Assembly: GCA_030604855.1 (NCBI GenBank)
Contig: JAUVVC010000001.1
Span: 180,001 to 212,000, forward strand
DNA: 32,000 nucleotides
Origin: Erysipelotrichaceae bacterium
GTDB taxonomy: Bacteria; Bacillota_I; Bacilli_A; Erysipelotrichales; Erysipelotrichaceae
Direction of reading: 5' to 3'
Within the stretch, counting starts at the first letter, position 1. The number at the start of each line of letters is the position of its first letter. Both the position numbers and the translations under genes were made by a program. Positions 19,297 to 21,221 of the stretch are shown one piece after another. The notes beneath the pieces are model-generated. The model searched no databases and was not told the origin of the DNA. It saw only the letters and a program-made list of their open reading frames with translations.

Positions 19297-19855
19297 AGTC
19301 CTAGAACTCAAACGTCTGAGCCACAATCACTTGGATGTCGTGAGTTTAAAGGATTTGAACATTCAAGAAGATGTGGAAGAAACAGGAAAGAGCTTCGAAG
19401 AAAATGCCCGTTTAAAAGCGCTATGGGCGTATCAGAAGACCGGTATTCCTTGTATCGCGGATGATTCCGGCTTGGAAATTACAGCCTTAAATAATGAACC
19501 CGGCATCTATTCAGCACGTTATTTGGGTGAAGACACTGCGTATTCAATCAAAAATCAAATCATTTTGGAGCGCATGCAGGATCAAAGTGATCGTAGTGCA
19601 CGCTTTATTTCAGTTGTGTGTTTAGTGCTTGGAGAGAATGATGTTCATTGTTTCGAGGGCATCATGCCAGGTTCAATTGATTTTGAAGCAAAAGGATTCA
19701 ATGGATTTGGTTACGATCCCATTTTTCTTCCAGAAAACCACAGTTTGACCTATGCAGAGATGGATCTGCAGTTGAAGAACAGTTTGAGTCATCGTGGACA
19801 GGCTTTCCGGAAGGTCATCGCTTATCTAGAAAGTCGAGTCGAATATGAAAAATAG
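19262..19855 (+). CDS. rdgB: non-canonical purine NTP pyrophosphatase (RdgB/HAM1 family)
   Basis: MKLLLATQNPNKVLELKRL, DDSGLEI, GFGYDPIF, SHRG. Start trimmed to ATG 19262 (GGAG 9 nt upstream). Overlaps the radical SAM gene by 35 nt. Confidence 0.9.
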   Translation: MKLLLATQNPNKVLELKRLSHNHLDVVSLKDLNIQEDVEETGKSFEENARLKALWAYQKTGIPCIADDSGLEITALNNEPGIYSARYLGEDTAYSIKNQIILERMQDQSDRSARFISVVCLVLGENDVHCFEGIMPGSIDFEAKGFNGFGYDPIFLPENHSLTYAEMDLQLKNSLSHRGQAFRKVIAYLESRVEYEK

Positions 19856-21221
19856 AAGTTTATCCCTGATCTTTGGTTTAAGCATTTGGGTTGTGATCAT
19901 CTTGGGGGTCATCCACATCAGTTCATTGGATAAAGCCTTTTATCGTGATCAGTACGCAAAGAATGAAGTTGCCGAAAACATCGGTATTAATGAAGTGGAA
20001 CTGGAAAAAGCGACGGCTGTCTTGTTGGATTACCTTGAAGGGAAACGCGATGACTTGAGTGTTTTTGCGACGATCGATGGGACCTACCAAGAAGTCTTCA
20101 ACACCAAAGAAAAGGATCATATGATCGATGTCCAGGTTTTGTTTGTCAAAACGATCTGGATCCGCAATATCGCCTTGGGATTATTGCTTACAATCGGTGC
20201 TTATTTAGGCTTCACCATGAAACGTGCAGCGATTGAAAGTCTATCCAAAGGCTTTAAAGAAGCTTCGATGGTTTTGGGGGTCGTGTTCAGCTTCATTGTG
20301 ATCTATGCCGTCTTGGACTTTCAAAACTTCTGGATTCTATTCCATAAACTCCTGTTTTCAAACGATTTATGGTTGCTTAATCCATATACGGACAATCTGA
20401 TTTTGATGGTTCCACTTCCATTCTTCTTCAGTTTGGTGAGTCTGATTCTCTTTCGATCTTTAATGGCCCTAGGCTTTGTGTTCACCTTGGACTGGGGTTT
20501 GACCCATCAAGGGTTTGACCATCGATTTTTGAAATGGTTTGCTCTAATTACCATGACCATCGACCATGTCGGACACTTTTTGTTTCCAGAGTACATTGAG
20601 TTGAGAGTGATCGGGCGTTTGGCTTTTCCCATCTTTGCCTATCTCTTTGCCTTGACCTATCGATATACCTCCAATCGTAAACGTCTGCTTATTCAAATGA
20701 GTATCGCGGCTGTATTGACCCAAGGCTTGCTTTATGTCGCGAATGTGACGGAGTTGGTGAACATCTTTTTCCTTTTCATGTTGGCTTGGCTGGCTTTTGA
20801 TGCGATGGATAAGCGCCGCGTTTGGTTGATCATCGTGATCGGTGCCTTGGCGGACTATTTCGGAGTGGATTATGGCATGTATGGCATTGCCGTTTTGACG
20901 ATGTTTTATTTCTATCATGAACAACGCACCAAACAAATGCTGGGCTATGCGATCATCACTTTGATGTTTGTCTTGTTGCCGTTTACATCACCGAACACCT
21001 GGTCGTTGATTCCTCAAATCCTATCCAATTTCTTTAGTTTTTATTGGCGTTACTTCTTACAAGCCCTATCCATTTTGGCCTTGGCTTTATTGTTTTTCTA
21101 TAATAAGCAGAAACCAAGGGCATATGCCAATAAACAAGTGGCTTTTGTCGAGAAGTATTTCTTCTATGTCTATTACGCCGTTCATCTTGCCTTATTGGGC
21201 ATTCTAAGGGGCTTATTATGA
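19845..21221 (+). CDS. fusion membrane protein: N-terminal TIGR01906/DUF1461 (Lit-like) domain + C-terminal TraX-family acyltransferase domain
   Basis: Residues 1-215 have an N-terminal TM, EKDHMIDVQVLF and FWILFHKLLFSNDLWLLNPYTDNLILMVPLPFFF (DUF1461 pattern). Residues about 225-458 have FLKWFALITMTIDHVGHFLF...IGRLAFPIFAYLF (TraX pattern). Confidence 0.7.
   Translation: MKNRSLSLIFGLSIWVVIILGVIHISSLDKAFYRDQYAKNEVAENIGINEVELEKATAVLLDYLEGKRDDLSVFATIDGTYQEVFNTKEKDHMIDVQVLFVKTIWIRNIALGLLLTIGAYLGFTMKRAAIESLSKGFKEASMVLGVVFSFIVIYAVLDFQNFWILFHKLLFSNDLWLLNPYTDNLILMVPLPFFFSLVSLILFRSLMALGFVFTLDWGLTHQGFDHRFLKWFALITMTIDHVGHFLFPEYIELRVIGRLAFPIFAYLFALTYRYTSNRKRLLIQMSIAAVLTQGLLYVANVTELVNIFFLFMLAWLAFDAMDKRRVWLIIVIGALADYFGVDYGMYGIAVLTMFYFYHEQRTKQMLGYAIITLMFVLLPFTSPNTWSLIPQILSNFFSFYWRYFLQALSILALALLFFYNKQKPRAYANKQVAFVEKYFFYVYYAVHLALLGILRGLL

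Follow-up and report, generated by a model that had tools for sequence, protein, structure and literature searches.

A Lit-TraX fusion protein from a conserved operon of Erysipelotrichaceae and its possible part in lipoprotein N-terminal remodelling

The N-terminal forms of lipoproteins (triacyl, lyso, N-acetyl or peptidyl) set the strength of their detection by TLR2 and may protect the cell against copper. The enzymes responsible for these forms have been found lineage by lineage: Lnt, Lit, LnsAB, Lnb and, in 2025, LhaT. The subject of this article is a gene from an uncultured Firmicute, of gut type, in the Erysipelotrichaceae, a common gut and environmental family, whose 458-residue product joins a domain of the Lit family to a domain of TraX, a family whose chromosomal members are widespread in Clostridia. 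The gene lies in the window, i.e., the whole stretch of 32 kb that was analysed (Erysipelotrichaceae bacterium GCA_030604855.1, contig JAUVVC010000001.1, positions 180,001-212,000, forward strand). A first reading made from these letters alone, called here the sequence-only reading, had taken it for a Rosetta-stone fusion of two domains with a common substrate, one possibility being that they remodel lipoprotein N-termini in two steps. The domain architecture is new, being assembled from two known families, and the fusion is, on alignments and models, a genuine two-domain integral membrane enzyme under selection. Its function is proposed more tentatively.

The best described relative of the N-terminal half is Lit from B. 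cereus, whose catalytic dyad is formed by His85 and His153 and whose pocket includes Asp88, Val89, Phe149, Phe157, Asn159 and Trp162 (PMC8275575). A K90A mutant is nearly inactive, Arg being common at the position of Lys90 among orthologues, and the crystal topology places both termini inside and the histidines outside (PMC8275575). N-acetyl lipoproteins of Bacillus are made by LhaT (YpjA, DUF1405), described in 2025, whose donor, acetyl-heptaprenylglycerol, is supplied by PcrB/YvoF (PMC12345273). The statement of the sequence-only reading that no enzyme had been assigned to the N-acetyl form is therefore outdated. LhaT is unrelated to TraX, and the window holds no PcrB, YvoF or DUF1405 gene. 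Lit and the N-acetylation pathway compete for a shared diacyl-lipoprotein substrate, and the co-expression of Lit with the Bacillus pathway leads to a mixed population with no doubly modified product (PMC12345273). In B. anthracis, lit is inserted directly downstream of lhaT in one operon, and LhaT has since been inactivated (PMC12345273). As for LnsAB, it consists of two proteins cooperating as a complex (PMC13559823).

The only function attached to the second family comes from plasmids: according to the work cited in PMC12423673, TraX of the F plasmid is needed for the N-alpha-acetylation of a membrane-anchored protein after removal of its signal peptide. TraX is considered a borderline member of the TmAT (Acyl_transf_3) superfamily; the AT3 proteins have a DxxRx10H motif in helix 1, and TraX characteristically has a Lys in the position of the Arg (PMC12423673). 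A literature search (TraX-family, PF05857, DUF1461/TIGR01906/PF07314) found no cellular role for chromosomal TraX, nor any paper combining lipoprotein intramolecular transacylase and TraX.

A two-domain membrane protein of one lineage

Gene calls on three contigs give the same 458-aa product; two of these contigs are shown to come from different samples (ERZ28614959 and ERZ15185615). Among 5.8 billion clustered proteins, 37 further two-domain clusters were found at 40-89% identity and 455-469 aa, and the fused homologues align end to end with the window protein. The fused form is also found in five species-representative genomes (L001-L005). Furthermore, 1.84 billion representatives clustered at 50% identity were scanned without a profile; of the 7051 matches, the best 150 were inspected. 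Only three fused 50%-identity clusters (P0016, P0030 and P0063) were found among these best 150 of 7051 matches, nearly all the other proteins being single-domain and 200-260 aa long, and the sequence-only reading was thus correct in noting that each domain usually forms a protein of its own, of about 220 aa. The named sources of the fused proteins are all uncultured Erysipelotrichaceae or Erysipelotrichales. Since the product recurs on three contigs, the architecture in 37 further clusters, and fused proteins in only three clusters among the best 150 matches, the Lit-TraX architecture is genuine, rare and confined to one lineage.

The single-polypeptide fusion announced by the sequence-only reading is thus borne out (one open reading frame (ORF), two Pfam domains, the same product on independent contigs). 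The four motifs that it had quoted are all present in the product, i.e., EKDHMIDVQVLF (residues 89-100), FWILFHKLLFSNDLWLLNPYTDNLILMVPLPFFF (residues 162-195), FLKWFALITMTIDHVGH (residues 228-244) and IGRLAFPIFAYLF (residues 256-268). An artefact, in which two genes would have been joined by a sequencing or assembly frameshift, was rejected and is essentially excluded: some relatives truly have two ORFs in different frames (L006-L008), but proper start codons, together with ribosome-binding sites and ATGA overlaps, mark these split forms as real alternative states, while the identical fused product is seen on three contigs, two of them shown to come from different samples, and its architecture and length recur in 37 other clusters.

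In a Pfam search, Lit and TraX are the only families that match the fusion protein. PF07314 (Lit) matches residues 9-194 with 123 bits (cutoff 24; E 1.9e-35) and is covered from position 2 to position 176 of its 176, and the NCBIfam model TIGR01906 gives 94.7 bits for a cutoff of 74.8. The family scores of both halves greatly exceed what chance would give. B. cereus Lit (PDB 7B0O) is found by phmmer with an E value of 8e-10, and Foldseek superposes the N-terminal half of the AlphaFold2 (AF2) model on 7B0O/7B0P with a template modelling (TM) score of 0.84-0.85, a root-mean-square deviation of 2.9 Å and an E value of 2e-6. The DUF1461/TIGR01906 assignment was therefore right. By its profile scores, this half is a member of the Lit family and not a Lit orthologue or equivalog, so that the Lit-like identity first given to it stands at the level of the family, without equivalence to Lit.

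The two catalytic histidines of Lit have counterparts in His92 and His167 (Table 1). Asp95 and Val96, after the former, correspond to Lit Asp88 and Val89; in the same way, Phe171, Asn173 and Trp176 correspond to Phe157, Asn159 and Trp162, and Trp163 is an aromatic residue standing in for Phe149. The dyad and the pocket residues are unvarying in 27 fused proteins, and the main ones in 73/73 Lit-like sequences. Alignment and model together indicate that residues 1-220 have the fold and the complete catalytic pocket of a lipoprotein intramolecular transacylase. Lit-domain residues altered by the presence of TraX were looked for and none was found, the pocket being identical across Lit-only, split and fused forms. 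Other architectures of Lit occur among the relatives: P0141 (497 aa) carries a HAD hydrolase, and P0203 (455 aa) and P0120 (395 aa) have long low-complexity cytoplasmic tails rich in Pro, Ala and Glu. These three proteins and P0039 were considered as divergent Lit-TraX fusions and rejected, as they have low-complexity tails, HAD or SpoU instead.

The C-terminal half is matched by PF05857 (TraX) over residues 228-455 (92.4 bits, cutoff 25; E 5.2e-26; 4-217 of the 217 profile positions aligned), which bears out the TraX-like domain that had been proposed. The equivalogs of F-type TraX and TrbP stay below their cutoffs (TIGR02755, 24.8 for 149; NF010260, 28.4 for 419; NF010454, 54.7 for 206), hence the domain belongs to the TraX family without being an F-type TraX. 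All the residues that are invariant in 45 TraX sequences, including free-standing ones, are present (M237, D240, H241, G257, R258, A260, Y343, Y441, Y444 and H447), and K230 and R254 are conserved in at least 90% of this set. The key residues are identical in the fused, split, TraX-only and free-standing Clostridial forms. The spacing of K230-x10-H241 equals that of the AT3 R-x10-H, but TraX lacks the Asp that precedes the Arg in DxxR. Within helix 226-245, H241 stops four residues short of the outer end, and K230 is beside the Lys/Arg-rich cytoplasmic linker. The AF2 model of this half alone has a predicted local distance difference test score (pLDDT) of 96.3 and a predicted TM score (pTM) of 0.91. 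No tra or conjugation gene is found within the window and no close conjugative-plasmid relative was found, the best plasmid TraX being no more than 36% identical, and that over a part of the domain; for these reasons pilin is not the substrate.

The topology was deduced from the helix boundaries of the AF2 model and from loop charges counted over 26 fused proteins. Segments rich in Lys and Arg (the N-terminus, 122-131, 216-230, 275-280, 323-326, 357-363 and 418-430) alternate strictly with acidic or neutral ones (the two Lit caps, 246-250, 299-306, 339-343 and 382-399), in agreement with the crystal topology of Lit (PMC8275575). This match places helix 1 of TraX in an inside-to-outside orientation. 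The region 216-230, which includes the linker between the halves, is Lys/Arg-rich family-wide, and the TraX start codon of split relatives falls at the linker position. D240/H241, R254/R258, the D342-Y343 loop and H447 lie in the outer-leaflet half, and K230 at the cytoplasmic end. In this model both candidate active sites face the extracytoplasmic side; the sidedness of the two active faces, which the sequence-only reading had named as a check of its proposal, is in its favour in that AF2 helices, loop charges and the Lit crystal topology all put both sets of catalytic residues outside. The full-length AF2 model (27 homologues) has a pLDDT of 91.9 and a pTM of 0.84, and the latter value, for a two-domain protein, suggests a defined packing of the domains. 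Searched against the PDB with Foldseek, this full-length model matched Lit alone.

One operon slot in four states

About 30 loci of Erysipelotrichaceae share one gene order. A choline-kinase-like gene on the minus strand is followed by radical-SAM/B12 and rdgB, then by a slot of variable content, and after it by trmL, an ORF for a small membrane protein, ridA and yitT. The slot is found in four states. It holds a Lit-like gene alone in Erysipelothrix spp., of which E. inopinata DSM 15511 is one, as well as in many metagenome-assembled genomes (MAGs) (L009-L037). It holds separate Lit-like and TraX genes in L006, L007, L008 and L086, each with a ribosome-binding site upstream of TraX; the TraX start overlaps the Lit stop as ATGA in L006 and L008, and lies roughly 50-60 nt inside the 3' end of the Lit-like gene in L007 and L086. 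As four independent assemblies show them, these split forms are real two-gene states and not errors. The fused state is that of the window, L001-L005, L081 and L082. Lastly, locus L087 (ENA ERZ24910761, a 53-kb contig) holds TraX alone: a gene at 3001-3684, encoding 227 aa, abuts rdgB and trmL, the Lit-like gene is cleanly absent from the slot, and the TraX invariants are all intact.

In a rough neighbour-joining tree of RdgB and TrmL (no support values), the TraX-bearing loci form one clade nested among Lit-only lineages. The simplest history would be one insertion of traX downstream of an ancestral lit-like gene, followed by the merging or separation of the two frames at their overlap more than once, and by one loss of lit. 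The junction of the fused proteins still resembles the N-terminus of TraX ('NSRFLKW' versus 'MNSRTLKW' in the split form). Before the fusion, lit and traX are best read, from their overlapping arrangement, as a translationally coupled pair. The series going from Lit-only to both and then to TraX-only looks like functional overlap or displacement in situ. The evolutionary history of the locus is, on these comparisons, well resolved, and its function is predicted.

When the window is compared with L001, the ratio of nonsynonymous to synonymous substitution rates (dN/dS) comes to 0.036 in the Lit half and 0.061 in the TraX half, with 0.018 in trmL. These values point to strong purifying selection on both halves, and the conserved residues of neither domain changed on association. 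The sequence-only reading had considered the two domains as linked in evolution, following the Rosetta-stone pattern, and this is what the clade shows, since it also includes the two-gene coupled version (L006, L007, L008 and L086). The common substrate that it had drawn from this pattern fares less well: the fused and coupled pairs within the clade speak for it, whereas the mixed operon, a Lit-TrmL protein (P0039) and the TraX gene alone in L087 call for caution.

The features of the locus are given in Table 1. The overlap between rdgB and the start of the fusion gene suggests operonic or translational coupling. If the TTG start of rdgB is used, this gene overlaps the radical-SAM gene by about 65 nt; other assemblies call a later start (197 aa). 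Diverged homologues of the 182-aa membrane ORF follow trmL in TraX-bearing as well as in Lit-only loci, hence this ORF is an ancestral, fast-evolving part of the operon, and its candidacy as a TraX-specific third component was rejected. The tail of the RidA protein looks like a metal-binding extension. In L001, L002, L006, L008 and L009, among others, tblastn matches run from position 1 or 2 to 182 of the query, which would include this tail.

Table 1. Features of the Lit-TraX locus, in positions of the window
Feature	Position	Strand	Remarks
Lit-TraX fusion ORF	19845..21221	+	458 aa; ATG start, TGA stop 21219-21221; uninterrupted (ORF list and raw sequence)
Lit-family domain, residues 1-220	19845..20504	+	four predicted transmembrane helices and two extracytoplasmic caps, both termini cytoplasmic
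His92 codon	20118..20120	+	equivalent of catalytic His85 of B. cereus Lit (HMMER alignment)
His167 codon	20343..20345	+	equivalent of catalytic His153 of Lit; within pocket FHKLLFSNDLW
Cytoplasmic linker, residues 221-225	20505..20519	+	between Lit helix M4 and first TraX helix; AF2 helices H191-220 and H226-245
TraX-family membrane acyltransferase domain, residues 226-458	20520..21218	+	about 9 predicted transmembrane helices, N-terminus inside
TraX helix 1 motif K230-x10-H241 with D240	20532..20567	+	Lys at cytoplasmic end, Asp-His near outer end
His447 codon	21183..21185	+	invariant His, outer half of last helix; candidate second catalytic residue
Conserved syntenic block	17683..22268	+	radical-SAM/B12, rdgB, [lit-traX], trmL, 182-aa membrane ORF; middle slot variable
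Choline/ethanolamine-kinase-like (APH family) gene	16817-17635	-	divergent from operon; position conserved in most related loci
B12-binding radical-SAM protein, DUF4080 domain	17683-19296	+	directly upstream of rdgB
rdgB/Ham1	19232-19855	+	11-nt overlap with fusion start at 19845..19855
trmL-like SpoU methylase	21218-21727	+	ATGA overlap 21218..21221 with fusion stop
182-aa multi-pass membrane ORF	21720-22268	+	no Pfam match; start overlaps trmL end
RidA/L-PSP family protein	22450-22998	+	about 50 aa at the C-terminus form a tail with many Cys, Gly, Glu and Asp (…HGESCGCGEGGCGDGEDAACCGQGCEDCGSEEEACTDGTCCG)
ComK-family competence regulator	23047-23532	+	between ridA and yitT-family membrane gene; syntenic in relatives

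Possible functions of the fusion

The reading favoured here, with somewhat less than even confidence, is that of a bifunctional enzyme remodelling lipoprotein N-termini, with the capping of different molecules in parallel as its leading form. The substrate would be the N-terminal lipid-cysteine newly exposed by signal peptidase II. The Lit half would move the sn-2 acyl chain of the diacylglyceryl-cysteine to the alpha-amine, giving a lyso lipoprotein, and the TraX half would act on the same class of substrate at the outer face, adding an acetyl or short acyl group whose donor is probably cytoplasmic acyl-CoA. In parallel capping, the TraX half would N-acetylate those diacyl-lipoproteins that the Lit half has not yet converted, so that every lipoprotein alpha-amine would end up blocked, in the lyso or the N-acetyl form. 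The fusion would then parallel the lhaT-lit operon of the Bacillus cereus group, by convergence and without LhaT. The N-acetylation chemistry of the TraX family, the lhaT-lit precedent of B. anthracis and the slot series ending in TraX-only are consistent, by analogy, with this proposal.

Several points weigh against the favoured reading. First, the activity of Lit-TraX is predicted from sequence and models. The N-terminal half is about 22% identical to B. cereus Lit, it scores 51.5 bits with the NCBIfam Lit equivalog NF051877, whose cutoff is 400, and the position of the important Lys90 is occupied by Gln97 in the window protein and its nearest relatives, more distant fused members having Lys or Arg. 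Foldseek found no significant match in the PDB for the model of the TraX half, HGSNAT and AT3 included (best E 1.4), hence a structural link to HGSNAT/AT3 was rejected, and neither an acyl-CoA pore of that kind nor the TmAT placement of TraX is independently confirmed by this search. A link to the ATGY superfamily (LhaT/TMEM164) was rejected too, as TraX is missing from the paper that founded the superfamily and no structure matched. Two competitors for one amine are also an odd pair to fuse, and LhaT decayed in B. anthracis whereas both partners are conserved here. Furthermore, a literature search found no lipoprotein chemotype reported for Erysipelotrichaceae.

Other points concern linkage. 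The operon mixes unrelated housekeeping genes, therefore adjacency alone is weak evidence. P0039, a relative of 399 aa, is a read-through fusion of a Lit-like domain with SpoU/TrmL, known from one contig that could contain a sequencing error, and split and fused forms interleave inside the TraX-bearing clade of the rough tree; the existence of this Lit-TrmL fusion and this interleaving mean that the Lit-TraX fusion may be nearly neutral. The sequence-only reading had suggested a survey of how often the two domains are fused or adjacent, and outside the clade no linkage is observed: no Lit gene is present in the flanks of metagenomic TraX loci (0/80), and a single free-standing genomic TraX locus has one nearby, 3 kb away. 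In this locus (L046, a Eubacteriales MAG), the Lit-like and TraX genes are at 606-1292 and 4426-5055, with three ORFs between them. A metagenome scan for more members of the fused clade gave, among the matches listed, only free-standing TraX with at most 37% identity. Likewise, no family recurs in more than 7 loci as a neighbour of free-standing TraX (1415 flanking ORFs from about 114 loci were clustered).

The strongest alternative, rather unlikely but still a serious rival, is a near-neutral fusion of functionally unrelated neighbours, in which the Lit half remodels lipoproteins and the TraX half keeps the general role of chromosomal TraX in Firmicutes, on another acceptor. The gene traX would have landed beside lit in a mixed operon, and small indels would then have merged or separated the frames at no cost, as the C-terminus of Lit and the N-terminus of TraX are both cytoplasmic and the genes overlapped. 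The unrelated company of radical SAM, RdgB and TrmL fits with this scenario, as do the fusions of Lit with TrmL (P0039) and with HAD (P0141), the interleaving of split and fused forms, the TraX-only locus L087 and the absence of linkage elsewhere. The lack of any residue change on association is equally compatible with it, the Lit pocket being the same in all forms and the TraX residues being those of Clostridial TraX. However, about 37 clusters retain the fused architecture at identities as low as 40%, both halves have a dN/dS of 0.04-0.06, and the genes appear to have been translationally coupled before fusing. The high full-length pTM of the model, which suggests a fixed domain interface, also speaks against it, as does the action of both families on the N-termini of membrane-anchored exported proteins at the outer face.

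In a second alternative, judged improbable, the two halves work in sequence on one molecule: the Lit half would first shift the sn-2 acyl chain onto the alpha-amine, and the sn-2 hydroxyl freed in this way would then be O-acylated by the TraX half with acetyl or a longer acyl group taken from acyl-CoA. The product would be an N-acyl-S-(1-acyl-2-acetyl-glyceryl) or a fully triacylated lipoprotein, made without Lnt or LnsAB. This is the sole arrangement that lets both activities use the same molecule, as Lit leaves a free hydroxyl (PMC8275575), and most members of the Acyl_transf_3/TmAT clan O-acylate hydroxyls, some of them with long-chain acyl-CoA (PMC12423673). Both sites are predicted on the outer face, and the hand-over of an intermediate would explain the coupling, the fusion and the conservation of both sites. 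Nevertheless, the only characterised TraX is an N-acetylase and not an O-acylase, TraX is a borderline TmAT member, and the model of the TraX half has no structural match. At the level of the locus, no Lit lies next to TraX in the TraX-only L087 from which a lyso substrate could come, and no such chemotype is reported in the literature. A self-contained two-step machine giving an undescribed acetyl-lyso or triacyl chemotype, with acetyl-CoA or acyl-CoA passed through the membrane, is regarded as quite improbable.

The sequential scheme first proposed by the sequence-only reading, i.e., transacylation followed by N-acetyl or N-acyl capping of the same alpha-amine, has the merit that both families target alpha-amino termini and that its domain calls were confirmed, but it is chemically incoherent and very improbable: both reactions need the same free alpha-amine, which is an amide that cannot be acetylated once Lit has acted, while N-acetylation leaves Lit without a nucleophile, and the published co-expression of Lit with N-acetylation gives competition and a mixed population (PMC12345273).

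With parallel capping as the tentative choice, the locus remains informative under any of these readings. The series of Lit, Lit plus TraX, fusion and TraX in one slot constitutes a natural experiment that is genetically tractable, from which a first cellular function for chromosomal TraX, or a lipoprotein chemotype not seen before, may emerge. A TraX half that modifies lipoproteins would represent either a second, convergent N-acetyl route working without a polyprenyl carrier or a new chemotype. Should the two halves act in sequence, Firmicutes would have an Lnt- and LnsAB-independent route driven by acyl-CoA, and the large orphan family of chromosomal TraX its first cellular function. If the TraX half does not modify lipoproteins, the lesson would be one of caution, namely that polytopic neighbours of compatible topology can fuse without a common function.

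Comparison with known systems

The Lit half belongs to the same Pfam and TIGRFAM family as Lit of B. cereus (BC_1526, PDB 7B0O), Lit of E. faecalis and Lit2 of Listeria. It shares with Lit the fold of four helices plus cap (TM 0.84), the His/His dyad, the Asp, Val, Phe, Asn and Trp residues of the pocket and a predicted topology that brings the active site to the outer leaflet. It differs by its low identity and equivalog score, by the replacement of Lys90 by Gln97, by the second enzyme domain at the C-terminus and by its position in a housekeeping operon, rdgB-lit-trmL, that is conserved across Erysipelotrichaceae.

In the same way, the TraX half has the full-length PF05857 match of F-plasmid TraX and IncP TrbP and keeps the family invariants (K-x10-(D)H in helix 1, R254/R258, the DYG loop and the C-terminal His). 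However, it is chromosomal and Gram-positive, has no conjugation genes nearby and reaches 25-55 bits with equivalogs whose cutoffs are 149-419; F-pilin, the substrate of F-plasmid TraX, cannot serve here. The fusion can also be compared to the AT3-SGNH acyltransferases such as OafB and OatA, which likewise join a polytopic membrane domain, dependent on acyl-CoA, to a catalytic module on the extracytoplasmic side (PMC12423673). The partner is here a membrane-embedded and N-terminal Lit domain, whereas SGNH is C-terminal, and TraX, with its 9 helices, is a borderline TmAT member whose modelled half matches no HGSNAT- or AT3-like structure of the PDB.

LnsA/LnsB of S. aureus and Lnt carry out a similar extracytoplasmic tailoring of the lipoprotein alpha-amine. 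They have no sequence relationship with Lit-TraX, and their acyl group comes from phospholipid, and not from acyl-CoA or from the substrate itself as predicted here.

A further parallel is the lhaT-lit operon of B. anthracis and B. cereus, the products of which both act at the outer face on lipoprotein N-termini (PMC12345273). In both loci lit adjoins, and is transcribed together with, a gene encoding a polytopic membrane N-terminal acetyltransferase, this function being a predicted one for TraX. LhaT, a member of the DUF1405/ATGY superfamily using acetyl-heptaprenylglycerol, is unrelated to TraX. Furthermore, the gene order is reversed, lit being the incomer in Bacillus, and LhaT is decaying in B. 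anthracis, whereas in Erysipelotrichaceae both partners are conserved and, in many lineages, fused.

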